Of a DNA stretch of 64,000 bases, positions 47,363 through 59,729 are shown piece after piece. The notes under the pieces were generated by a model. The model made no database searches, was not told where the DNA came from, and saw nothing but the letters and a program-made list of their open reading frames with translations. The translations under genes and the position numbers were made by a program. The stretch is from Flavobacteriaceae bacterium (GTDB taxonomy: Bacteria; Bacteroidota; Bacteroidia; Flavobacteriales; Flavobacteriaceae): NCBI GenBank assembly GCA_018402385.1, contig JAGYJA010000005.1, forward strand, positions 1 to 64,000, given 5' to 3'. Position 1 is the stretch's first letter. Each line of letters begins with the position of its first letter.

Positions 47363-47860
47363 ATGGATATTTTATTAGTTAGCATTGGTTTTATTTTAAT
47401 GCTCGTGGGTATTCTGGGAAGTGTGCTTCCTGTTTTACCGGGAGTGCCCATAAGCTGGTTGGGCTTGTTGATGATTTATCTGGCACCTTCAGTGCCTATG
47501 GATTGGGTTTTTTTGAGTATCACGCTGGTATTGGCAATTTTTCTATATGTCTTGGATTATATTATTCCGGCTATTGGAACTAAACGTTTTGGAGGTAGTC
47601 GTTATGGAATGATAGGGGCAACCCTTGGACTTGTTATTGGGATCATTGCCCCCATCCCTTTTGGAATAATTATAGGTCCGTTTGCTGGGGCCTATTTAGG
47701 AGAACTCTTAAGTGTGAAAACCCGGCACAACGCTATGAGGGCTGCTTTTGGTTCGTTTGTGGGGTTTTTGGCCTCTACTTTTATGAAGCTTTTTGCTTCT
47801 TTTGTTTATTTGGGCTTGTTTATCTATAAAGTCTGGGCTTATAGTGATAAACTTTTTTAA
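47363..47860 (+). CDS. DUF456-family membrane protein
   Basis: ILGSVLPVLPGVPISWLGLL opening typical of DUF456; 4 TM segments. Confidence 0.55.
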   Translation: MDILLVSIGFILMLVGILGSVLPVLPGVPISWLGLLMIYLAPSVPMDWVFLSITLVLAIFLYVLDYIIPAIGTKRFGGSRYGMIGATLGLVIGIIAPIPFGIIIGPFAGAYLGELLSVKTRHNAMRAAFGSFVGFLASTFMKLFASFVYLGLFIYKVWAYSDKLF

Positions 47861-48411
47861 AGCCAAATGGTTTTATTCTCTATACTGCTTTTGCGAAATC
47901 CTTCCGGCAACTCCTCCTCATAATACCCCATATAGAAAAATCCGAGACAGGTTTCGCCTGGAGCGAAATCAAAAAATTCGTGCATATGTTTGATCAATCC
48001 CGGCGAACTCCAATAGGCCCCAATGTTCATTTCAGTACACAGCAACCACATATTTTGAACTGCCATAGCAGTGGCTGCAATTTCTTCCCATTCTGGAACT
48101 GATTCTTTGGGATCGCGTTGCATGCAAATCGCGATAATGCAGGCAGCTTTCGTGGGGTTTTCTTTGAGCTTGTCGTATTGAAAATCAGAAAATTTATCAG
48201 TTGTCTCCTTAAATTTTTCAGCTAAAAATTCACCTAATTTTACTAAACTCTTTCCTTGAAGCACTTTAAACCGCCAGGGTTCGGTGCGTTTGTGAGTAGG
48301 AGCCCAGTTGGCTGCTTCCAGAACTTGAAGGATGTTTTCTTTTGAAATGGGTTTTTGGTTGTATTGTGCCGGAAATACTGCACGCCGTTTTTTAATTGTT
48401 TCGAATATCAT
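47857..48411 (-). CDS. Nitroreductase-family protein
   Basis: AANWAPTHKRTEPWRFKV nitroreductase N-terminal motif. Confidence 0.7.
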   Translation of the reverse strand: MIFETIKKRRAVFPAQYNQKPISKENILQVLEAANWAPTHKRTEPWRFKVLQGKSLVKLGEFLAEKFKETTDKFSDFQYDKLKENPTKAACIIAICMQRDPKESVPEWEEIAATAMAVQNMWLLCTEMNIGAYWSSPGLIKHMHEFFDFAPGETCLGFFYMGYYEEELPEGFRKSSIENKTIWL

Positions 48412-48559
48412 CAGAATTGGGTTTTAATTGCTAAAGTTATTAAAAAACAAAAGGAGGAGTTTAAAATAATACTTATTTTTAGTTACAAGAAATTTTCAAA
48501 ACTAACTGATGCTTAAAAGGTTCTTTACTTACACTTTTAACAAAACCACTTAAGACCCA

Positions 48560-49816
48560 ATGAAAGACCACTACATACTCCTGGCAAGTTTGGGTTTTGC
48601 TACCCTTTTAATGGCTTGGCTTCCGTCTATTTCTGAAAAAATTAAAGTGAGTTCACCGGTTATTTTATTGCCCATAGGTATTTTACTTTATTTGGTGGAT
48701 GTTCCTCTGGGTTGGACAGAATTGTTATGGAGTGATAACGCTATGATGATTTTTTCTGAAGCCATCGTGATTATTTCATTAATGGGAGCGGGATTAAAAA
48801 TAGGAAGCAATTATAGTTTCAAAGCCTGGAAGCGGCCGTTGTTATTGATAGCCATCACGATGCCTTTGACGATGCTTTCAGCTTATTTGCTGGGGGTTTA
48901 TTTTTTAACGCTCAGCATACCGGCATCGCTTTTACTGGCTGCTGTTTTAGCTCCCACAGATCCGGTGTTGGCTTCTGATGTGCAATTGGACGACCCGGAC
49001 AGAGAGGATAAACTGAAGGATAAAATCAGATTTTCACTCACTGCAGAAGCGGGCTTAAACGACGGTATGGCCTTCCCATTTACATTTCTTGCGGTTATGG
49101 TTGTTCAGGCCGGCAGTTTTGCTGCTTTTAGTTTTAGTGATTGGTTTTGGGACAAATTGCTTCTTAAAATTGCAATAGGTGTTGCTGTGGGGATTTTGAT
49201 TGGGAGGTTGATTGGCTATGTCCTTACGCACCTAAAGAAATGGAAAGGAATCAAAACCTATGATGGTTTTTTGGCACTCTCTTTAACCTTTGCCGTTTAC
49301 GGGTTAAGTGAGTTGGTTCATGGGTATGGGTTTATAGCAGTGTTTTTTACCGGGTTGAGTATTCGTTATTCTGAAAATGTTAGTGGGAGTTACAAAAAGA
49401 AAATTCACGACTTTAGTCATGAGATTGAAAGGCTCCTAATCGTAGTTTGGATCATTCTTTTTGGAGGAACAATCATGAACGGAATTTTAGAAATGACAGA
49501 CTGGAAAGGCATTCTTTTTAGTGCTGCTTTTGTTTTAATTGTAAGGCCTTTAGCAGGAATGATTGCTTTAATTGGTATCAAAGACTCTATTAAAAACAAA
49601 CTTGCCATCAGTTTTTTAGGAATCAGGGGAGTGGGTACTATATTTTACCTTTCGTGGGCTTTTATGCAAACCGAACTTTTTGAAAATAAATATGAGCTCT
49701 ATTCCATCGCGGCTTATATTATATTGTTCTCCATCGTTTTACACGGAGTTACCGCGCCTTCAATCATTCGGTACTTTAGAAAAAACCCGAAGCGGCATGG
49801 GTTGGATGATGTTTAA
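48560..49816 (+). CDS. Cation:proton antiporter (CPA1 Na+/H+ exchanger family)
   Basis: 418 aa, ~12 TM segments, AGLNDGMAFPF motif. Confidence 0.8.
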   Translation: MKDHYILLASLGFATLLMAWLPSISEKIKVSSPVILLPIGILLYLVDVPLGWTELLWSDNAMMIFSEAIVIISLMGAGLKIGSNYSFKAWKRPLLLIAITMPLTMLSAYLLGVYFLTLSIPASLLLAAVLAPTDPVLASDVQLDDPDREDKLKDKIRFSLTAEAGLNDGMAFPFTFLAVMVVQAGSFAAFSFSDWFWDKLLLKIAIGVAVGILIGRLIGYVLTHLKKWKGIKTYDGFLALSLTFAVYGLSELVHGYGFIAVFFTGLSIRYSENVSGSYKKKIHDFSHEIERLLIVVWIILFGGTIMNGILEMTDWKGILFSAAFVLIVRPLAGMIALIGIKDSIKNKLAISFLGIRGVGTIFYLSWAFMQTELFENKYELYSIAAYIILFSIVLHGVTAPSIIRYFRKNPKRHGLDDV

Positions 49817-49884
49817 AAAGTGGATGTATTCCTAAGTGTACACCTAAAACCATCCAAAACTTACTATTTAGCAATCTGCCTTAA

Positions 49885-49953
49885 AACAAAAAAAGCTCTA
49901 CGCACAAAGGCGAAAAGCTTCTCATCGGCTCTATCCCCAAGTTTACTTGGGGA
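49885..49953 (-). repeat. Degenerate copy A of the tRNA-Asp 3'-flank/terminator module
   Basis: AAACAAAAAAAGCTCTACGCACAAAGGCGAAAAGCTTCTCATCGGCTCTA..CCCCAAGTTTACTTGGGGA, ~90% identical over ~69 nt to copies B and C. Confidence 0.7.
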
Positions 49954-50012
49954 CCTTTCCGCCTTCCTTCGAACAATTGAACCTTTTCATTAACGTTCAC
50001 AAGATTACTTGG

Positions 50013-50032
50013 TGTGACAGGCAGGAATTCTA
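50013..50032 (-). pseudogene. tRNA-Asp remnant (anticodon-arm fragment)
   Basis: GTGACAGGCAGGAATTCTA matches 19/20 nt of the intact tRNA-Asp anticodon-stem/D-arm segment; the rest is unrecognisable. Confidence 0.5.
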
Positions 50033-50296
50033 TTATTTTTTAAGAATGTTTTTAGGCGACTTAATAAGTTGTTGGATTTGAGAATGGCTATATTTTTTTA
50101 AAACTTTTTCTCTTATTAATGCTAGTTTTTTTGTTTCAAGGCATTCAATATATATTAATTCCCAAGGCCCTTTGTTCTTGGTATAGTTGCTCTCGTTTTT
50201 ATTGTGGGAGATTATCCTTTTATATGGGTCTGTTGAATACCCCCTATAATATTTAGAAGAATTTTGACTAAAAATTATGTAAACGTAGTGTTCCAT
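50033..50296 (-). CDS. Small GIY-YIG nuclease-family protein
   Basis: YVYIIFSQNSSKYYRGYS...R...E (GIY-x10-YRG); 87 aa. Confidence 0.7.
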   Translation of the reverse strand: MEHYVYIIFSQNSSKYYRGYSTDPYKRIISHNKNESNYTKNKGPWELIYIECLETKKLALIREKVLKKYSHSQIQQLIKSPKNILKK

Positions 50297-50309
50297 TCGG
50301 AACTAATTT

Positions 50310-50441
50310 AAACAAAAAAAGCTCTACGCACAAAGGCGAAAAGCTTCTCATCGGCTCTACTACAAGCCTTTCCCCAAGTTTACTTGGGGACAACACAACA
50401 TCTTGACGGCTACTGAGCGTAGTCGAAGTATGCGGTCTGGA
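50310..50441 (-). repeat. Copy B of the tRNA-Asp 3'-flank/terminator module plus 9-nt tRNA 3' stub (island distal junction)
   Basis: 131/132 nt identical to copy C except CAAAGG versus AATAAT. Ends in CGGTCTGGA, the reverse complement of tRNA 3' end TCCAGACCG. Confidence 0.8.
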
Positions 50442-50448
50442 AGTTTCT

Positions 50449-50906
50449 GTAGCTGAGATATATTCAGCTAACAGATTTCCTTCTAAATCAAATTGGAGCA
50501 CTGGTTTTTTTCTGTTATCCTCTACTTTGTAATTCAAATACAGTTTAAAACTCCAAAAGAAGTCTTTACAACTTTTGTTTTTTCCCAAACAAGTATTGCT
50601 TATGGTTTTTTTATCTGCATTGACTGCATTGGCTACACTTTCTAGGGAATCATACTCAGAAACTAAGTTTTCATCTAAATCATACTGATAGACTGATTTT
50701 TTGAACCCTCCACCAACATCCCTGTTATATCCTTCTTCCTTACTGTTGTATTTAAAAATATACTCCTTTTCTTTTTCAGCTAAGTTCAAACGATTTTTTA
50801 GTTCTTCTTCAAACTGATGATCTCTGACTTGTTTTAATATATCAGCATAACCTGCTTCATCAACCTTAAAGGCCTTATTACAATTAGGGCGAATAATTTC
50901 ATTCAT
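50449..50906 (-). pseudogene. NUMOD1-repeat DNA-binding protein, 3' end truncated by the island boundary
   Basis: Two NUMOD1-like repeats (VYQYDLDENLVSEYDSLESVANAVNADKKTISNTCLGK; VLQFDLEGNLLAEYIS). The ORF has no stop of its own and reads through repeat copy B to 50268. Confidence 0.45.
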
Positions 50907-51106
50907 TTCATTATCTTTTAGTTAGTTACTTTCAATCTACCACAACATAAAATAATCATCAAGTTCAGCTTATTATAGTTGTTGCTTTCTTGTCTAATTT
51001 TGTTAATTAATAGCCAATCAAATATAAAAACTACAGCTATGATTTATAGTCTAACCTCCGAGTTGTTTTTGGATTAAAAAGTATATTAAATCTAAAAGTT
51101 TTTTCT

Positions 51107-51547
51107 TCAATCGATAATCATTAGAAATTCTTCTGGATGGCTAAGATAGTGGTCTATTTCTTTTAATTGATGAATTTTACTTTTCAGCCCAATGAGCTCA
51201 TGTAAAAACGCATTTTCAGCTTTTAAACTTGAATGATGCATTAGTTGTATGGTATGCATGCCCCTTTTTTCGTAGTGTAAACAAACTGCCTTATTCTCAT
51301 TGATTTTTTCTAAAAAAGCATCAATAGTTCTGGTATTAAACGTGCTTTTAATTGCATTGAATTGTTTTATTAAATGGGCTATGCGCTTTTTTCTTGAGTT
51401 GATGCCTTGTTTAAAATACCATGACTGCCCATCAGGATCTTCAAGCTTTCGTTTTAAGATGGCATACTCCATGAGAAGGCCAGCCAAACTCGAATGGTTT
51501 TGCTTTTTTACAAATAAGGCTTCTAACTTTTTAGCATCTAAAGGCAT
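51107..51547 (-). CDS. Hypothetical protein (island)
   Basis: 146-aa ORF predicted helical; no recognised domain. Confidence 0.3.
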   Translation of the reverse strand: MPLDAKKLEALFVKKQNHSSLAGLLMEYAILKRKLEDPDGQSWYFKQGINSRKKRIAHLIKQFNAIKSTFNTRTIDAFLEKINENKAVCLHYEKRGMHTIQLMHHSSLKAENAFLHELIGLKSKIHQLKEIDHYLSHPEEFLMIID

Positions 51548-51675
51548 GTTTGTGTCGTTTATATTTTACTTGAAAATGTACTACAAAAACATAAAATTGT
51601 AAAAGGTGAGATTAACATATTAAAATTTCGGGTAACAGCGTCTTAATAAAAGCTGCTATAAGTTCAAATACTATT

Positions 51676-52440
51676 TTAAGATTTTGTTAAATACTTGTTT
51701 TTAAGATGTTTATCCCTATAGTCTAGGAGGTTATCAATTTTTTCTTTCCAGTTTGTTGGTAAGCTTGGCTCTTTCCATTCAATGTCATTATACCATTCAG
51801 GTGCAAATAAGTTGTTAGATTCACCTATTCCTATTAAATTATTACCATATAAATTTAAATGACGTTTATAGAAACATTTTTTAACGTTTATCATTTGGTC
51901 AGTTGGTTTGGCAAAACCCTTAGGAATTAATACAACATTAGATGCAGACGTAAAAAGAGAATATGGTTTGGTAGAATGATCAAAATTCTCAAAGACTTCC
52001 TTTTCTAAATCTCTTTCACTTTCCTTGTGACCAAACACATGTGCTAACTCAAAATAATTCAAACCACTTTGTATCCAACTACCACTAGAATAAGTCTTAT
52101 TTAGAGACAAATAAGTCCATAAATGCCTTGGATAAGTATTATCATTAAAAATTGTTCCGTCTTTTTCATAAATATTATTTTTCCATCTTTTTAGATGTTT
52201 TTTTTCAATATTAATAGGTCTTCGAATCCCTGGAAATATACAATCTGAGCCTTCGTAAAAAAAATCATCAAAATTCAATTTTGGGTGACAAAACCCCTTA
52301 AAGCTTTCTTTAAAGTCAATATTTCTTTCTGAAATATATTTTACAATTTCAGGGTGTATATGATGTGTGACTAGACCTAATATTATTGCTAATTCCCTTT
52401 CAACTTCTTCAGACTTATTTTCAAATTTAAAATTTTCCAT
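51676..52440 (-). CDS. Hypothetical protein (island; 8 bp downstream of the DUF2779 gene)
   Basis: 254-aa ORF with HxxxH-like ELAHVFGH segment; no family recognised. Confidence 0.3.
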   Translation of the reverse strand: MENFKFENKSEEVERELAIILGLVTHHIHPEIVKYISERNIDFKESFKGFCHPKLNFDDFFYEGSDCIFPGIRRPINIEKKHLKRWKNNIYEKDGTIFNDNTYPRHLWTYLSLNKTYSSGSWIQSGLNYFELAHVFGHKESERDLEKEVFENFDHSTKPYSLFTSASNVVLIPKGFAKPTDQMINVKKCFYKRHLNLYGNNLIGIGESNNLFAPEWYNDIEWKEPSLPTNWKEKIDNLLDYRDKHLKNKYLTKS

Positions 52441-52447
52441 ATTTATT

Positions 52448-54433
52448 TTATTCTATTATTTCTTTCAAATGCTCAAACACCATCACCATTGCTAAGGTAT
52501 CTAACTCACAATACTTCAATAGGGCATCGCGCAGCTTACCTCTTTCTAAATCGCTCATATCAGTATATTGGGTTAACCCGTAAGCGGTTAAAGCGGCACC
52601 ACCATTATTGATTTCTTCAATATCACTTTTACGCTCAAAATCCGGATCCCAATCTTTAAACGGTTTATCTAAAGATTTATAAGGATCTTCTATTTCACCG
52701 TCTTTTATACGCAACCACTCGTGATCACTCGGAAAATTCTCACTCGTCATATTAATGTCTGCAATCGGTTGACTGTACTTTTCTTTGATGAATTCAGAAG
52801 TTTTGAAAATAGCCGGCAAAATAGCCTTAATGGAATTACTCCCTTTGGTATGTGGGTTGTAGTAATAGGCTTTGATTACTTCACAAAGGTCAATCATGCC
52901 TCTTTCGGGTTGCCAAAGTTCGCCTTTGTAATCCTTGTCCTTTGGTGGCGTGGTCAATGTCTTAATGAAGTTGATTAAGCTTTCTTTATCTGGCTCAGTT
53001 GAAGCTTCCAATTGCCGTTTGACTTGATTTAAGGTAGAATTTTCATAGGGCGAAAACTGAAACACAGAACCGTTGTTTAATTCTAAGGCTGCTTTTAGTG
53101 CTCTTATAAACTCAAAATTGGGGAACTCACCGGGGTTCACATTAATAAATTCTTTAGCGTGTTCTATACGTCCATCTTCATGGTAGATATGGTGAGAAAA
53201 TTGAAATACTACTTTTTCATAAGGATGCTGACCTTTATAAAAAGGGAGAGCCACTGTAGAAGCTTCAAAGTCAATAAAATTATAAGGCGGTGTCCAAGAA
53301 GCCATTTCACTTTTCAATTCTTGATCTAAAATTTCAAAAGTGAAATTATCAGGGTCTAATGCTTTCTGTTTTTGTAAAATTTGCCTTTCGTAAAGCGACC
53401 AACCATTCAAAACCTGTTTTGATTCACTTTTTGGTTGTAATTGTTCATCATTTATGTCTTCTAATTTTAGGACATTAAATTCATTGAATCCTCTAAGTTT
53501 GGTGTGATGCAGCTTTGAGATTTCAAAAGCATTTGGTGCTTTAAAATCTTCTTCTTTCCAACCTAATTGCTTTTGAAAACATTCTTCAAAGCCTGATTTT
53601 TTATCTTTTGAGGCTGCATCTGTTTTAAACTCACAATGCTTGCATTTTCCAAAGTTGAGGGGATAACCAAAATAGCGGTCTTCTAGATAGGCTTTAGATA
53701 AGACTTCAATAGCATCTTCAAATTCATAATCTCCTAAAATGCGATGTTCTCCTGTTTCAATTTTAGTAATGATCTCCGAGACATCTTTAAGGGATAAGAC
53801 CGAGTCTTCTGGTAGGTTTAACTGAGCTAATTGGTCTTTCTTTATATATATTCCAGTCCTACTATTACTGTTCTTTTTAATTCGAAACATTTGGTTTAAT
53901 CCATCTACAGATGCTGTTTTAAGTTGGTCGGCTAGCATTAAGTAGGGCTTGACACTAAATTGTGGATGTGCTTTTTCTATAACGTATTTTTGAAAAGCCA
54001 CATCAAACAAATACAAACTCCAATCAGAGTTATATTTCACATCCTTCTTCTTATCCCCTTCTTTAAATGACTTGGCCTTCACTTCAATTAAATTGATGTG
54101 ATTGCCTTTTTTCTCTAAAATATCAACACGGATAAACAAATTATTGTATTTAAAAGCAGCCTCATAAATCACTACATTCTCCTTTTGCAGTTGTTCATTC
54201 GTTTCAGCTACTTTTTGTTCATAATCATAATGGGCAGATTTATCATCATCAACTAAATAACCACCAGGGTAATGCATACGTGCTAATTCTTCTACCTGAA
54301 AGCCGCCTTTAGCCAAAGCTTCTAAAAACGGATTATTGTTTTTTTGATTAGCATAGTCATCTTTCTTGGTGTAAAACAATTTATTAGGGCATTCAAGGCC
54401 TAATTTAAAATATGATTTGGTTAAGTATCTCAT
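52448..54433 (-). CDS. DUF2779-family predicted nuclease: N-terminal PD-(D/E)xK (RecB/Cas4-like) domain plus C-terminal RNase-H-like/DEDDy-like domain
   Basis: MRYLTKSYFKLGLECPNKLFY start; FIRVDIL...NLIEVKAK (D...ExK); later FIDFEAS (DxE) and KYCELDTLAM (YxxxD). Confidence 0.5.
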   Translation of the reverse strand: MRYLTKSYFKLGLECPNKLFYTKKDDYANQKNNNPFLEALAKGGFQVEELARMHYPGGYLVDDDKSAHYDYEQKVAETNEQLQKENVVIYEAAFKYNNLFIRVDILEKKGNHINLIEVKAKSFKEGDKKKDVKYNSDWSLYLFDVAFQKYVIEKAHPQFSVKPYLMLADQLKTASVDGLNQMFRIKKNSNSRTGIYIKKDQLAQLNLPEDSVLSLKDVSEIITKIETGEHRILGDYEFEDAIEVLSKAYLEDRYFGYPLNFGKCKHCEFKTDAASKDKKSGFEECFQKQLGWKEEDFKAPNAFEISKLHHTKLRGFNEFNVLKLEDINDEQLQPKSESKQVLNGWSLYERQILQKQKALDPDNFTFEILDQELKSEMASWTPPYNFIDFEASTVALPFYKGQHPYEKVVFQFSHHIYHEDGRIEHAKEFINVNPGEFPNFEFIRALKAALELNNGSVFQFSPYENSTLNQVKRQLEASTEPDKESLINFIKTLTTPPKDKDYKGELWQPERGMIDLCEVIKAYYYNPHTKGSNSIKAILPAIFKTSEFIKEKYSQPIADINMTSENFPSDHEWLRIKDGEIEDPYKSLDKPFKDWDPDFERKSDIEEINNGGAALTAYGLTQYTDMSDLERGKLRDALLKYCELDTLAMVMVFEHLKEIIE

Positions 54434-54463
54434 GCTTGCAGCTTAAAATTTATTTCAGATGTA

Positions 54464-54943
54464 TTATCCATTTAGTTTAAAATAATCTAAAATGGCTTCC
54501 CAATTCGGGTAGTTATTGAATTTGTTATTGATGTAATCCCAACCAAAATGAAGGTGCGTTCCCTTAAAATTGCCTGCGCCGTTAGCTGTTCTATCATCGA
54601 TTAAATAGTCGCCAATCAGTAAATCCTTTCTGTGCGTAATAATCAATTTCTTATGAAAAATGTCCCCAAAATGTTCTTCAATCCAGTTGCGCTTGTGCAT
54701 CCATGCGGTAGGATTGTCCCAGGGTGCTGTAGTTAAAACAAATAGGTCGTATGTATTGGATAAATACAGTTTACGAATAGCTTCTTTTGCACCTGGAACT
54801 ACTTCCAAATTTGCAAAAATGCCATGAATATTGTCAGGATTATCTTTATACTTTAAATAATCTGACTTAGGATGAGTCTTAATCGCCTTTGAAAAATCAG
54901 CTAGGACTCCATCCATATCAATGTAAATAATCGGTTGATTCAT
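54464..54943 (-). CDS. HAD-superfamily 5'(3')-deoxyribonucleotidase (NT5C-like)
   Basis: IYIDMDGVLADF HAD motif I; 159 aa typical of NT5C. Confidence 0.65.
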   Translation of the reverse strand: MNQPIIYIDMDGVLADFSKAIKTHPKSDYLKYKDNPDNIHGIFANLEVVPGAKEAIRKLYLSNTYDLFVLTTAPWDNPTAWMHKRNWIEEHFGDIFHKKLIITHRKDLLIGDYLIDDRTANGAGNFKGTHLHFGWDYINNKFNNYPNWEAILDYFKLNG

Positions 54944-55466
54944 TTACTATTAGTGGTTAAACTTTTAGAGGGCTTTTATAAAATGAAATAATACACTATC
55001 CATAAAACCCACTTATCTTATTAAGATTTTCACTTAAACCTTCTACTGTGTACTTGGTGTAATCTCTTGCCATGTTAAATTAAATTTTAGTTCTATATGT
55101 TAAATTTTATAATTGAAATTTCAATATGCTTTTGTCACTTTTAGGATAATAAAATTGGTAATTTTACAAACTATTGAATGTAAGAATTAGTTTTTTTTGG
55201 TAAAATGGGTTATTAAACTGAAAAAACTATTTTTATTAAGATGTTATTTATTGTTATGTAGAAATAATAATAAAACTCTTGAATTTACGAATAGAGTTTA
55301 CTTAAGAAAAGCAGCTATTTTAGAATCTCTAAACGATATACTTTAAATCTTTAAAGATTAAAATCCAATGATTTTAAATAAAACTTAAAAAGATATTGGA
55401 AGCTTATAAAACAATTGTTTACCTTATAAATAATCTATTTTTATATTTTTGTAAAAAAAACAATTA

Positions 55467-56597
55467 ATGATTTTTAAACAACTACTTTTAAGTTTAATAC
55501 TTTCTACACAGATTTCACCAAAAGTTTTTTTAGACGACAACGGAATTACCATAAGATGTAATACAAATGCTAAGGTAGGTGAAACTTATAATTTTAATGG
55601 AACACCTTATTTAATAGTTGACAATGAGCTATTAAAAAAATTAGTGAAAAACAAAGAGCCTCTAGAAAATGTTGTCACTACTTTTGTTACAGATATGAGC
55701 TACCTTTTTTATAAAAACAAAAATTTTAACGATAATATAAGCCATTGGGATGTTTCTAATGTTACCACTATGAGCTGGATGTTTGGTTTTTGCGAAGAAT
55801 TTAATGGGGATATAAGTAATTGGAATACTGAAAATGTAGAGTTTTTTAACGACATGTTTCATGGTACAAAAAATTTTAATGCAGACTTATCTAAGTGGAA
55901 TGTTAGTAAGGGTATACTATTTAATGGTATGTTTTTTGAAAGTTTTTTTAATAATGACATTAATTCTTGGGATGTTTCTAATGCTACTAATTTGAGTGGT
56001 ATGTTTGATAATGCTTTGGACTTTAATAAACCCTTATCTAATTGGGATGTTTCTAATGTTAAATTAATGGGAGGTATGTTTGCTGAAGCCATTAAATTTA
56101 ATCAAGATATAAGCATGTGGGATGTAGGTAAAGTTACTGATATGACAAACATGTTTAGAAATGCTGTTAAATTTGAATACGATTTATCATCTTGGTCACC
56201 AAGAATTTACATTACTCCAAAAAATTTTAATTTCAATAGCCCTGTTATAGGACCAGAGTTTAAAAAATCTACAAATATTTATTTACCTTCAATTATAACA
56301 GCAATATTTTTTACTCTAATTTATTTTTATAAAGTTTATCGTTTTAAGAGAAAAGAGGAATTTAAAGAGTATAATACCATTGTTAAGAAACTGATAAATA
56401 ACAAAAAAATTAATAATCATCACTTAACAAAAAGCGATTTGGATGAAATATTTGCCCTAACGCATTTAGAATATGAAAAACAAAAAGCCAAAAGATCTTC
56501 TTTAATTAAAGAGATTAATAATTACAAACCTGGATTAATTGATAGGGTGAGAGATCCAGAAGACAAACGCTCTTTTTTATATAAAATAAATTCTTAA
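55467..56597 (+). CDS. DUF285 / 26-residue-repeat surface protein (BspA-like) with C-terminal TM anchor
   Basis: About 8 tandem repeats of the form FNxDISxWDVSNVTxMxxMF, then a TM helix (IITAIFFTLIYFY) and a basic tail. Confidence 0.6.
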   Translation: MIFKQLLLSLILSTQISPKVFLDDNGITIRCNTNAKVGETYNFNGTPYLIVDNELLKKLVKNKEPLENVVTTFVTDMSYLFYKNKNFNDNISHWDVSNVTTMSWMFGFCEEFNGDISNWNTENVEFFNDMFHGTKNFNADLSKWNVSKGILFNGMFFESFFNNDINSWDVSNATNLSGMFDNALDFNKPLSNWDVSNVKLMGGMFAEAIKFNQDISMWDVGKVTDMTNMFRNAVKFEYDLSSWSPRIYITPKNFNFNSPVIGPEFKKSTNIYLPSIITAIFFTLIYFYKVYRFKRKEEFKEYNTIVKKLINNKKINNHHLTKSDLDEIFALTHLEYEKQKAKRSSLIKEINNYKPGLIDRVRDPEDKRSFLYKINS

Positions 56598-56971
56598 ACA
56601 TACAAAATAAAAATTCTAATAGTAATTGAACTAGATTAGGAATAGTAAGTTTTTAAGGTAAAATACCTTTAATATCCACCTCTATTTACATTCAAAACTC
56701 TTGCTGGATAGGGCGGACAAAGTGAGCATCAGTAAATTATCAATAAATCTTTCTATTGCAATAGTTTACTGTCGTAAACCACATGGCTCAAATTATCCGC
56801 TGCGAGTAGTTAGGTTATCCACCCCATCCAATTGTAAGCTTACCTACCTAATCAGAAATCTTATTGGATTAAACTCCTTTGATAAGATTCCCCTTCTTTT
56901 CTTATCATACAGATTTCCTTTTGTAAAGAAAATCGATTTTTTTATACATAATGAATTTTTTATATGATAAA

Positions 56972-57018
56972 ACATATAATATGAATTTAAATGACCTAAA
57001 TATATGTTTTTACATATA
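56972..57018 (+). promoter_or_regulatory. Two tandem palindromes TATATG-N6-CATATA (putative HipB operators) upstream of the HTH gene
   Basis: 56972-56989 TATATGATAAAACATATA and 57001-57018 TATATGTTTTTACATATA, centres ~29 bp apart, 40-90 bp before the HTH start. Confidence 0.45.
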
Positions 57019-57058
57019 ATTTTATATATTTGTATTTAATTATATTTTTAAGCATATA

Positions 57059-57268
57059 ATGAGTGGTTTATCAGAATTTGTAAAGCAACGTAGAAAAAGT
57101 GTCAATCTCACCCAAGAGGAATTTGCCGAACGTGCCGGTGTGGCACTGACCGTTATACGTAAGATTGAACAGGGAAAGACCAACCTGAACATGGAAAAGG
57201 TAAATCTGGTATTGAACATGTTCGGACATGAACTGGCTCCCGTTCAGATAAAAAGACAGGATAAATGA
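57059..57268 (+). CDS. XRE-family HTH regulator (HipB-like)
   Basis: 69-aa ORF with an HTH segment LTQEEFAERAGVALTVIRKIEQGK. Confidence 0.75.
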   Translation: MSGLSEFVKQRRKSVNLTQEEFAERAGVALTVIRKIEQGKTNLNMEKVNLVLNMFGHELAPVQIKRQDK

Positions 57269-57600
57269 GACAGGGCCTTGTATATTATAACGACCATTTG
57301 GCTGGAACCATCACAGAAACAAATGATGGAGAATACATCTTTCAGTATGATGATAAGTATGTTGAGCAATATCCTAATGACTTTATCACCTTTACCATGC
57401 CCGTAGCCCATACTCCCTATAAAGACAAACGACTGTTCCCTTTTTTTGAGGGTCTTATACCTGAGGGCTGGCTGTTGAACATAGCCTCTGAAAACTGGAA
57501 AATAAACCGAAATGACCGCATGGGACTTTTATTGGCATGTTGCCATAATTGTATTGGTGCGGTGAGTGTTGAACCTATAATCAAGGAGAATGAAAGGTAA
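57265..57600 (+). CDS. HipA N-terminal subdomain protein (HipS-like)
   Basis: 111-aa ORF with a HipA_N pattern (LVYYNDHLAGTI...FQYDDKY...LFPFFEGLIPEGW); overlaps both neighbours. Confidence 0.7.
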   Translation: MRQGLVYYNDHLAGTITETNDGEYIFQYDDKYVEQYPNDFITFTMPVAHTPYKDKRLFPFFEGLIPEGWLLNIASENWKINRNDRMGLLLACCHNCIGAVSVEPIIKENER

Positions 57601-58531
57601 GTGCTTATATTGTTATGGTGAGACAACCGGTGGAAAGGACTTTCACGATAAGTGCTCTATGGCGTTTTTTGGGTCCACAAGTCCCCCAACAATAGATTAC
57701 TCCTTGAACCAAATGGACGAATTGGCCAAGAGCGTTGTGGAGCGCAGTGTTGCCGTTCCCGGTGTGCAACCCAAGCTGTCCATGTCACTAATAAAGGAAA
57801 CACGGGAAAAGGCCGACACAAGACTCACCGTGATTGGTGCGTTGGGCGGTGAGTTCATTCTAAAACCACCATCGGAGCTTTATCCTGAAATGCCAGAGAA
57901 CGAACACCTGACCATGAAAATAGCGGAACGCTTGGGAATAAAGACTGTTCCCTGTTCCCTTATCAGATTGGCATCAGGTGAACTCTCATATATTACAAAG
58001 CGGATTGACAGAACGCCTGATGGTAAAAAGGTCCATATGTTGGATATGTTCCAAATAACGGAGGCCTTTGACAAATACAAAAGTTCGATGGAAAAAATAG
58101 GCAAGGCCATCGACCTATACTCCAGTAATACGCTCCTAGACAAAGTCCTGTATTTTGAATTGGTCGTTTTTTCATTCATTACCGGTAACAATGATATGCA
58201 CCTGAAGAACTTTTCCTTGATAAAAGACCCTGTTGGCTGGACTTTGTCCCCTGCTTATGATTTACTGAACGCATCCATTGCGAATCCGGATGATGATGAA
58301 GAGCTTGCCCTAACACTTAACGGTAAAAAAAGAAAATTAAGGTCTGATGATTTTGTTGCTTTGGGCAAGGGAATGGAGCTATCGAACAAGCAGATAAAAG
58401 GGGCTTTCAAAAGAACCGTTGATAAGTTAGCTGTAATAACAGAATGGATAGATAAATCCTTCTTGTCGGCAGACATGAAAGGAAAATATAAAGAAATTAT
58501 ATCCTCAAGAACCAAGGCAATAGGGTTGTAA
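57590..58531 (+). CDS. HipA-like Ser/Thr kinase core (HipT-like) with N-terminal CxxC...H..C motif
   Basis: 313-aa ORF with VPGVQPKLS and DMHLKNFSL (HipA catalytic-loop type) motifs. Its ATG lies 10 nt before the upstream stop. Confidence 0.7.
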   Translation: MKGKCLYCYGETTGGKDFHDKCSMAFFGSTSPPTIDYSLNQMDELAKSVVERSVAVPGVQPKLSMSLIKETREKADTRLTVIGALGGEFILKPPSELYPEMPENEHLTMKIAERLGIKTVPCSLIRLASGELSYITKRIDRTPDGKKVHMLDMFQITEAFDKYKSSMEKIGKAIDLYSSNTLLDKVLYFELVVFSFITGNNDMHLKNFSLIKDPVGWTLSPAYDLLNASIANPDDDEELALTLNGKKRKLRSDDFVALGKGMELSNKQIKGAFKRTVDKLAVITEWIDKSFLSADMKGKYKEIISSRTKAIGL

Positions 58532-58558
58532 AACAACAATATATCTCTACCTACTGAT

Positions 58559-59485
58559 TTAACTTAGCAATGGGTTATCCCACCGCATAAACCAATTCAA
58601 AATAATCGTTCCGTTTGATATTGTCAAACACTTCCAGCCCGGTCCTATTGTTGAACAGGTCTCCAAAGTTCTCGGCGAGCATCTCCCAGCCCTGCATCCC
58701 GACCTCGTAAGAATTCGGAAGAGGTCTGATAGTATGTTTTTTTCATGCAAAAAAACGATTTCTTTTTTACCTGTTTTATTTTTAAAAGCCAAAAAGGGAT
58801 CTTTACCTAAGTATTCATTAACAATGACATATTTAATCACCTTTCTAAAGCGTTGAATTACCTTATTAATGGTACTTTGCTGAAAGCTTTTTTCAGTTAC
58901 CAAGTAGTATTGTAAATCATCTAAAAATGAACCTTTAAGTTGTTTTAATAAGATATCTGAGGTTTTAAATTTCCACTTGATAAAGCTTTCAATGTGAGTG
59001 TAAGTTTCTAAGTATTTACTGTATGTGACCTGTTGAATTTCTTTACCTACAAGGTTTTTGATGTGTTCGTTGTGTAAGTTGAAGGTAGCAAGAACTCCCA
59101 TTTCTTCAGTAGTACTTTCTCCTTTGTATTTAGAGAGGATATCAACAATTGTAAAGGAAGCTCCGGCTAGTTTTAATTTAAGGTAAGAATCTTGAAGCTT
59201 TTGCCTGATTAATGTGATGTTGTCATTAATATAATCACTGTCTTCTTGGTCTTTCGCAAACTGGCTATTAATATCCCAGTTTTCAGGTTTAATAAAGAGT
59301 CCTGTTGAGAATTCCTTAATATTTCTATCAACAGTAATTCTACAACGAATGGGGCACTTGCCAGATTTGTTGATTTTGGATTTTTGAATGACATACAAAA
59401 TTCCTAATGTGCTACTTTTCATACTTTTAGGTGTTAGAAAAGTGGGGCACTCGAAAATATTTTGGGGCACTAAAATGACTCCCAA
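58559..59485 (-). pseudogene. Tyrosine-recombinase/integrase remnant: N-terminal arm/SAM-like domains only, fused to an unrelated GC-rich fragment
   Basis: Bacteroidota-type integrase N-terminus (KSGKCPIRCRITVDRNIKEFSTG...). The catalytic domain is absent. The last ~60 codons are GC-rich and unrelated; the alternate frame ends ...NRTGLEVFDNIKRNDYFELVYAVG*. Confidence 0.55.
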
Positions 59486-59532
59486 AATTTATAAAAACCA
59501 TCCAAAACTTGCTTTCTAGCAGAAATGACTAT

Positions 59533-59664
59533 AAACAAAAAAAGCTCTACGCAATAATGCGAAAAGCTTCTCATCGGCTCTACTACAAGCCTTTCCCCAA
59601 GTTTACTTGGGGACAACACAACATCTTGACGGCTACTGAGCGTAGTCGAAGTATGCGGTCTGGA
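59533..59664 (-). repeat. Copy C of the 3'-flank/terminator module (native downstream region of the intact tRNA-Asp)
   Basis: CCCCAAGT-TT-ACTTGGGG perfect hairpin; AGCTTTTCGC..GCGTAGAGCT stem followed by T7 on the tRNA strand. Confidence 0.8.
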
Positions 59665-59729
59665 CGGGACTCGAACCCGCGACCCCCTGCGTGACAGGCA
59701 GGTATTCTAACCAACTGAACTACCAGACC
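59656..59729 (-). tRNA. tRNA-Asp (anticodon GTC)
   Basis: GGTCTGGTAGTTCAGTTGGTTAGAATACCTGCCTGTCACGCAGGGGGTCGCGGGTTCGAGTCCCGTCCAGACCG; cloverleaf with 7-bp acceptor stem and GTC anticodon; CCA not encoded. Confidence 0.9.

Follow-up and report, generated by a model that had tools for sequence, protein, structure and literature searches.

A decayed, probably integrative element in a tRNA-Asp insertion hot spot of a marine flavobacterium

Background

How did the nine kilobases of DNA beside the tRNA-Asp gene of a marine flavobacterium get there, and what has become of them since? The question is raised by a 64-kb stretch of Flavobacteriaceae bacterium (GCA_018402385.1, contig JAGYJA010000005.1, positions 1-64,000, forward strand), which as a whole we call the window. 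An initial annotation had described the DNA next to this gene as a degraded island with defence-like cargo. We conclude, at a probability of roughly 0.88, that it is a decayed integrative element lying in an insertion hot spot at tRNA-Asp. The island itself is then a textbook case of insertion at a tRNA gene, loss of the integrase and piecemeal replacement of the cargo, in which each block boundary could be mapped. The hot spot extends across many marine flavobacterial genera and holds ecologically important cargo, for example a rhodopsin gene with blh in Aequorivita lipolytica. Together with the conserved sequence that marks it, the trailer of tRNA-Asp, it is the part most worth following.

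Loci for comparison were obtained in two ways. Genomes were scanned with the neighbouring DUF58 protein, which gave 80 loci from many flavobacterial genera, and metagenomes with a 47-mer taken from the trailer, which gave one TARA Oceans contig, L096. Loci are cited by number; among those with a named organism are L025 (A. lipolytica), L091 (Psychroflexus maritimus) and L092 (Mesoflavibacter). tRNAs were called with ARAGORN and Rfam, domains with Pfam and NCBIfam, solved relatives were sought in PDB and defence systems in PADLOC-DB 2.0. The limits of the repeat described below were set by base-by-base comparison after a repeat search of the window, and the blocks of the island interior were delimited by nucleotide identity to other genomes.

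The flanking repeat and the empty site

The single tRNA of the whole window is tRNA-Asp(GTC), on which ARAGORN and Rfam agree (Table 1). It is intact and stands at the island's end, as had been annotated. From its 3' end runs a sequence that recurs at the far end of the island. The repeat search gave 50269-50441 against 59492-59664, at a spacing of 9223; base by base, the true repeat is the pair attR and attL of Table 1, identical at 131 of 135 positions, and the 38 nt past it are only 55% identical, which is noise. Within it lies a perfect block of 106 nt (50336-50441 = 59559-59664). Read on the tRNA strand, the repeat begins 10 nt inside the 3' end of the tRNA (TCCAGACCGC; 9 nt by the Rfam end), and the remaining ~125 nt are trailer and terminator, to the end of the hairpin and then the T-run. 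A match of this length cannot have arisen by chance. The initial annotation had already described a far end repeating about 123 nt of flank and 9 nt of tRNA, with correct coordinates; its two copies stand, and it overlooked a third, degraded one. A displaced tRNA 3' end in direct orientation at the far end is what islands of the Islander type have, the tRNA part being short here.

The insertion itself becomes visible in L096. The flanks of this contig are 95-97% identical to those of the window on both sides, with no island between them: L096 1-702 corresponds to window 60233-59532 and L096 570-2461 to window 50441-48560, and the two matches overlap in one single copy of the repeat. The order in L096 is DUF58/tRNA-Asp, one repeat copy, a GIY-YIG gene (100% amino acid identity) and an antiporter gene (98%). 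An empty tRNA-Asp site followed by these genes in a relative is what the initial annotation had proposed to look for. In a three-way alignment, the L096 site consists of the left side of the tRNA-proximal copy and the right side of the distal copy. Its terminator loop (CGCCTTTGTGCG) and everything beyond agree with the distal copy. The copy beside the tRNA has CGCATTATTGCG instead, and its distal arm, which runs into the integrase gene, is a different one. attL thus differs from the empty site at three loop positions and past the T-run, and the three loop differences place the native terminator at attR. The terminator that adjoins the tRNA, earlier taken for the native one, is the copy brought by the island. 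This is the signature of a Campbell-type insertion with the crossover inside the 106-nt identical block. The inserted DNA measures 9,223 bp.

Other relatives have an empty site as well, with boundaries at the repeats as in Islander-type islands. In the closest genome, L002 (83% amino acid identity), tRNA-Asp is followed after 228 bp by nitroreductase and DUF456 genes, whose counterparts lie at 47363-48411 of the window. The difference between attL and attR, 4 of 135 positions, suggests that the insertion is not ancient.

Table 1. Features of the tRNA-Asp locus in the window
Feature	Position	Strand	Basis or remark
Nitroreductase gene, conserved far boundary of the hot spot	47857-48411	minus	Pfam; synteny
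Na+/H+ exchanger (antiporter) gene, inside the variable interval	48560-49816	plus	Pfam
Third trailer copy, degraded	49846-49954	minus	Without tRNA end and proximal 40 nt; 11-nt deletion
GIY-YIG gene, 87 aa, between distal repeat and third trailer copy	50033-50296	minus	Pfam
attR: displaced 10-nt tRNA-Asp 3' end, native trailer/terminator	50307-50441	minus	Same as empty site through terminator loop and beyond
GIY-YIG homing endonuclease, C-terminal fragment (NUMOD1)	50556-50783	minus	Pfam; L066 comparison
Borrowed block NT5C-DUF2779-p254-p146-DUF2130'	50766-55076	minus	Pfam; nucleotide identity
DUF2130 gene fragment, first 47 codons	50766-50906	minus	89% identical to L093
p146	51107-51547	minus	No Pfam match
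p254	51676-52440	minus	No Pfam match
DUF2779 Cas4-like/exonuclease protein	52448-54433	minus	Pfam
NT5C	54464-54943	minus	Pfam
DUF285/PARCEL-repeat gene	55467-56597	plus	Pfam PF03382, E 3e-57; NCBIfam PARCEL repeat; GC 27%
hipBST toxin-antitoxin block, 1.9 kb, discrete	56845-58746	plus	Pfam, NCBIfam, PDB; nucleotide identity
hipB (HTH; HTH_3/couple_hipB)	57059-57268	plus	
hipS (Couple_hipA; HipA N-subdomain)	57265-57600	plus	
hipT (HipA_C kinase)	57590-58531	plus	
Tyrosine integrase remnant, arm-binding and SAM-like domains	58748-59422	minus	Pfam; tblastn with L066 integrase
attL: last 10 nt of tRNA-Asp, trailer/terminator; terminator loop and distal arm island-derived	59530-59664	minus	131/135 vs attR
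Intact tRNA-Asp (GTC), integration target	59655-59729	minus	ARAGORN; Rfam RF00005, 69.6 bits

The integrase remnant and its relatives

Beside attL lies what is left of an integrase. The open reading frame 58559-59485 contains Arm-DNA-bind_5 and Phage_int_SAM_5 domains, and no Phage_integrase catalytic domain was found in it with Pfam. It begins 45 bp from the repeat, the start supported by homology being the ATG at 59422. That the catalytic domain is missing from a gene so close to the repeat had been stated before and holds. By tblastn, the intact integrase of L066 (400 aa) aligns to window 58748-59407 over residues 3-223; in intact relatives the Phage_integrase domain occupies residues 223-384. 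The final 62 codons of the reading frame are not integrase. They are antisense to the 3' flank of a neighbouring toxin-antitoxin block, hipBST, and recur beside hipT in three unrelated contigs. The right end of this block coincides exactly with the breakpoint of the integrase, and so it would be the block that removed the catalytic domain.

Intact relatives, whose search had been suggested, exist. In L003, L029, L039, L052 and L066, which represent five genera, a full-length integrase of the family follows tRNA-Asp directly and on the same strand. Truncated ones occur in the window, in L015 and in L039, there as a second, more distal copy. Instead of the functional integrase of Islander-type islands, the window has residues 3-223 of 400; since the catalytic domain is absent, we file the island as decayed and not as active. 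Because a tblastn search with the L066 integrase revealed no other integrase in the window either, self-excision by an enzyme of the island's own appears to be excluded. It is possible that the island is lost through RecA recombination between the 135-bp repeats, or that a related integrase moves it in trans.

The comparison with L066 also accounts for the other end. The element of L066 contains AAA_24, DUF3871 and two phage-family genes (phrog_1366, phrog_2467), and at its far end a GIY-YIG/NUMOD homing endonuclease and RadC. The homing endonuclease fragment next to attR is 52% identical to residues 71-147 of that endonuclease, and this stub appears to be a leftover of the far end of the original element. 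With the integrase remnant and the endonuclease fragment both shared with L066, the island of the window keeps the two extremities of such an element and almost nothing between them. The layout of a tRNA-targeting island, which the initial annotation recognized, is borne out by the repeat, the empty site and these relatives beside tRNA-Asp.

How the island may have arisen

If this is correct, the history of the locus could be as follows. An element of the L066/L039/L052/L003/L029 family would have brought along an attP duplicating the final 10 nt of tRNA-Asp and the ~125 nt of trailer and terminator. The integrase of the family would have recombined attP with the chromosomal site somewhere in the 106-nt identical block. 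The insertion rebuilt a full tRNA-Asp with trailer and terminator at attL and displaced the native copy by 9,223 bp to attR, as the comparison with the empty site shows. The interior would later have been replaced piecemeal: the hipBST block took out the catalytic domain of the integrase, the NT5C-DUF2779-p254-p146-DUF2130' block ends inside the homing endonuclease gene, and the AT-rich DUF285 gene lies between the two, the original backbone having been reduced to its two extremities.

There are precedents for the first part of this scheme. The Islander paper (PMC4383910) describes the general rule for islands integrated into tRNA genes. Among cases tested by experiment, the nearest is the 10K island of Riemerella anatipestifer, a member of the same order, in which the integrase lies beside tRNA-Arg and a 53-bp att covers the end of the tRNA together with the terminator that follows it (PMC6764341). 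The window shares with such islands a tyrosine integrase gene beside an intact tRNA, a restored tRNA 3' end, a displaced fragment at the far end, an att made of tRNA end and terminator, and presence or absence among relatives. It differs in that its integrase has no catalytic domain, its repeat comprises 10 nt of tRNA and ~125 nt of trailer, and its interior has been replaced almost wholly. From the position and orientation of the remnant, from its relatives and from the Riemerella island we infer that an integrase of this family made the insertion.

Some points weigh against this scheme. No intact copy of the island and no circular or attP form of it was found, so the role of the integrase in this particular event has to be inferred. 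No more than 10 nt of the repeat belong to the tRNA, and some relatives have a repeat that begins up to 51 nt past the tRNA end; hence the true target may be the trailer rather than the tRNA. In theory, the empty site of L096 might have arisen later, through deletion between the repeats. Finally, the order and mechanism of the internal replacements are a putative reconstruction from block boundaries only.

What else might explain the locus? The island may never have integrated here at all and may have come, already decayed, by homologous recombination of a larger fragment from another strain, with the flanks serving as homology arms. Genomes that are 95-97% identical differ in having the island although its integrase is dead; the DUF58/tRNA-Asp and GIY-YIG/antiporter flanks are conserved enough to recombine; and internal blocks 90-96% identical to other Flavobacteriaceae speak of active exchange. 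Such a transfer is possible, and on the whole we think it unlikely. It merely shifts the integration to another strain, since the anatomy of the att sites still needs a site-specific or Campbell-type insertion, and the few differences between attL and attR suggest an event that is not ancient.

It is improbable that an integrase played no part and that a circular DNA with ~135 bp of homology was inserted by RecA-dependent Campbell recombination. The perfect 106-nt block is far longer than typical integrase cores, and such repeats have boundaries anywhere between -27 and +51, counted from the tRNA end, depending on the locus. Against this stand the remnant, which sits right at the attL end and is oriented canonically, the presence of its family beside tRNA-Asp in five other genera, and the Riemerella island, which uses an att of tRNA end plus terminator with its own integrase (PMC6764341).

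We consider it very improbable that the locus is an integron-like array, with the trailer copy as recombination site and cassettes captured successively downstream of tRNA-Asp. The idea draws on extra trailer copies that bound inserts of one or two genes without an integrase in many genera (rhodopsin and blh, surface proteins, GIY-YIG), and on a cargo gene for a 418-aa protein that is accompanied by an integrase in L039 but not in L025. The locus lacks, however, an IntI-type integrase, and neither attI nor a Pc arrangement is present. The integrases of the hot spot are of the phage type (Arm-DNA-bind_5/SAM_5/Phage_integrase), co-oriented with the tRNA and decaying in place, and tandem accretion with subsequent deletion gives the same pattern; tycheposon islands (bioRxiv 10.1101/2020.12.28.424599) are among the well-documented examples of this process.

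The last explanation, that the 9.2 kb are ancestral and that the TARA relative and the other genera lost them, is hardly credible: a deletion between 135-bp direct repeats would leave precisely the empty site seen, but none of ~70 related loci from many genera has the island cargo at this site, the composition is atypical and mosaic with near-identical blocks elsewhere in unrelated contexts, and the repeats themselves still require an insertion.

The interior of the island

The gene calls of the initial annotation (HipB/HipS/HipT, DUF285, DUF2779 and NT5C) were all confirmed with Pfam, NCBIfam and PDB, and the nucleotide identities divide the interior into blocks. The GC content of the interior is 32.6% against 37.2% outside, in a mosaic pattern, and the lowest 9.1-kb window outside the island is not below 34.3%. 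The AT-richness that had been claimed is thus real and modest, with an exception in the hipBST block.

In this block, hipB, hipS and hipT overlap and form a three-gene operon, as is characteristic of HipBST. The best matches in PDB are HipT(Lp) (8ezr_B, E 3e-46) and HipS(Lp) (7vkb_B, E 6e-13), and the HipT motifs DMHLKNFSL and SPAYDLLN align with the solved relatives and are conserved. The block is 96% identical in nucleotide sequence to L089 and L090 and 94% to L091, there up to 58731. Its left end is the same in all three, its right ends are nearly the same (58731-58746), and the neighbouring genes differ. Its GC content is 42%, against 31% for the integrase remnant. Immediately upstream of hipB, at 56960-57059, are three palindromes TTATATG-N7-CATATAA, which are probably HipB operator sites. 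The module looks intact and is most likely an addiction module that stabilises the island.

Its gene order (HTH, HipS-like, HipT-like kinase) is that of HipBST in E. coli O127:H6 and Legionella pneumophila (PMC6581861, PMC10627512, PMC9325769), with which it also shares a HipT of ~313 aa, the kinase loop DMHLKN and the AYD motif, besides having the Legionella proteins as best structural matches. Here, in contrast, the host is a flavobacterium, and the module moves as a discrete 1.9-kb block with fixed ends. A HipA-family toxin-antitoxin module on a tRNA-integrated composite island is also found in CGI48 of Shewanella putrefaciens (PMC8978831), which makes a stabilising role plausible; the module there is a two-gene hipBA that was tested experimentally.

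A sequence of ~108 nt at the left end of the block (56845-56952) recurs elsewhere at 77-87% identity beside a p146 homologue, at L092 9410-9517, L082 13138-13245 and L084 13085-13187. One genome has a copy just upstream of a Fic gene. The sequence contains an inverted repeat, TGATAAGA-N12-TCTTATCA, and has no match in Rfam.

The largest piece of the interior is the borrowed block that ends in the DUF2130 fragment. Window 51106-55076 is 90-95% identical in nucleotide sequence to L082-L085, where p146 follows directly after DUF2779, so that p254 is an extra 0.9 kb in the window. L092 and L093 are collinear with the block, p254 included, and have a DUF2130 gene after p146. In the window, the DUF2130 fragment is fused in frame to the homing endonuclease fragment. 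DUF2779 proteins are predicted to be fusions of a Cas4-like PD-(D/E)xK nuclease and an RNase H-like 3'-5' exonuclease (PMC3985635, PMC13621843). With NT5C next to it, the earlier label of a nuclease/nucleotidase operon is fair at the level of domains.

p254 belongs to a highly conserved family of patchy distribution. It has no Pfam domain, and its predicted fold, a confident one (pLDDT 94), has no significant match in PDB. Residues His134, His138 and Lys139 are invariant. This uncharacterised family and the hipBST block with its fixed ends are further leads. The AT-rich spacer upstream of NT5C (55003-55133) is 74-85% identical to intergenic sequence in L082, L084 and L086, where similar sequence is repeated before several genes of DUF2779-containing clusters.

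Nowhere is the island richer in AT than in the DUF285 gene and the spacers on either side of it (21-27% GC). From an N-terminal hydrophobic segment and a C-terminal transmembrane segment, the gene product is predicted to be a surface protein.

Is any of this cargo for defence? Among the cargo proteins there was no significant match to a defence system in PADLOC-DB 2.0. The matches were weak: the candidate PDC-M03A for HipT (3e-11), HEase (3e-4) and CARF_PDDEXK (2.5e-3); NT5C, p254, p146 and DUF285 had none. hipBST is a toxin-antitoxin module. As no known defence system was matched, the earlier description of the cargo as defence-like is unproven.

The hot spot and its older insertions

The site has been used more than once. 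The order Trx-ClpP-DUF58-tRNA-Asp is conserved in ~70 related loci, nearly all of the 80. The interval from tRNA-Asp to the nitroreductase gene ranges from ~0.2 to 8 kb across genera, with differing contents (L002, L005, L016, L018, L048 and others). Repeats of tRNA end and trailer also bound inserts in L012, L052, L053, L056, L074, L025 and others, and the inserts of the hot spot measure between 0.35 and more than 8 kb.

The GIY-YIG and antiporter genes beyond attR, earlier taken for core chromosome beside the site, are absent from the tRNA-Asp site in all 80 related species. They are present in L096. They are thus accessory too, and were probably acquired earlier than the island. The third, degraded trailer copy appears to mark them as older insertions. 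It has the motif CCGATGAGAAGC at 49928. The GIY-YIG gene, lying between trailer copies, looks like an older mini-insertion, and the antiporter gene, too, was probably acquired at an earlier time.

Judging from L096, variability extends to the far side of the hot spot. Between antiporter and nitroreductase (L096 2462-5187, against window 47860-48560) this contig has genes for a LysR regulator and an Sbt-type bicarbonate transporter, and after the nitroreductase (L096 5746-8276) one for a 689-aa glycosyltransferase-9 protein. These three are absent from the window, and the L096 nitroreductase is only 83% identical to that of the window.

A likeness to such a locus is seen in the tycheposon arrays of Prochlorococcus (bioRxiv 10.1101/2020.12.28.424599). 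They share with it a marine host, a tRNA-linked hot spot in which each new integration moves the older elements further out, broken integrases, additional partial att copies and cargo of ecological relevance. They occur in another phylum, however, and have an integrase family other than the Arm-DNA-bind_5/SAM_5 type seen here, and the unit repeated here is mainly the tRNA trailer and not a partial tRNA.

In A. lipolytica, two trailer copies enclose a rhodopsin gene (Bac_rhodopsin, E 1e-39) and one for a beta-carotene dioxygenase (blh), at L025 13389-15567. The product of the preceding cassette is the above 418-aa protein, which is Gly-rich and secreted; in L039 the same gene adjoins an integrase.

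The trailer of tRNA-Asp

What do the repeats have in common? The left edge of the duplicated segment lies between 27 nt before and 51 nt after the tRNA end in different loci, and the constant part is the trailer and not the tRNA. The trailer consists of AUGUUGUGUUG, a hairpin whose sequence varies and stays paired, UGUGGUUUAGAAAUAGACCGAUGAGAAGCUU and the terminator. The 12-mer CC[G/A]ATGAGAAGC occurs once downstream of tRNA-Asp in ~50 loci, and elsewhere almost only in extra copies within the hot spot; three one-mismatch matches (L053, L056, L065) are off that pattern or deviate from the G/A variant.

For 25 sequences RNAalifold predicts 24 pairs. Compensatory changes are seen in 11 of these pairs, for the most part within the first hairpin. 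The covariance model derived from this alignment has 84 matches in 1.49 Mb, all on the tRNA strand and all just after tRNA-Asp or deeper in the hot spot, and many loci outside the model-building set are among those matched. Eight unrelated loci gave no match, and within the window the matches are confined to attL (59537-59626, 67 bits) and attR (50314-50403, 66 bits), the degraded third copy scoring under the threshold. First copies are found in ~66 loci (L034 11248-11332, for instance), and ~14 loci have two or three. Most Flavobacteriaceae loci examined thus contain an element of ~85 nt that combines two conserved single-stranded segments with a covarying hairpin and a terminator. No Rfam family matches the trailer: at the gathering threshold the tRNA is the one hit, and the matches at E<=10 are at chance level.

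The element is a candidate new trailer RNA or small RNA. As the alignment was chosen by motif, the covariation is suggestive and not proof of RNA function. The element gives a concrete means of locating accessory genes in the genomes and metagenomes of flavobacteria. One may speculate further that this ~85-nt structured RNA, which would be co-transcribed with tRNA-Asp or follow it, is itself the attachment site of the integrases, and the locus a family-wide gene-capture array in which each insert brings its own copy of the RNA and the cargo comprises rhodopsin and blh, surface proteins, toxin-antitoxin modules, nucleases and p254. At present we find this rather doubtful.

Small GIY-YIG genes (85-105 aa) recur between duplicated pieces of the tRNA-Asp unit: window 49955-50306, L053 11156-11830, L017 11227-11650 and L073 4323-4796. 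In the window and L053 these pieces are trailer copies (segments of tRNA end and trailer) located beyond the tRNA on its downstream side; L017 and L073 have 22-24-nt fragments of the tRNA 5' end instead, upstream of the tRNA. Such genes with their duplicated tRNA pieces may form a distinct class of tRNA-associated mini-elements. Upstream of the tRNA there are also tandem pieces of the tRNA-Asp 5' end, 25-30 nt long, ~110 nt apart and in up to four copies, at L005 11081-11441 and L064 11095-11339 and also in L056 and L080.

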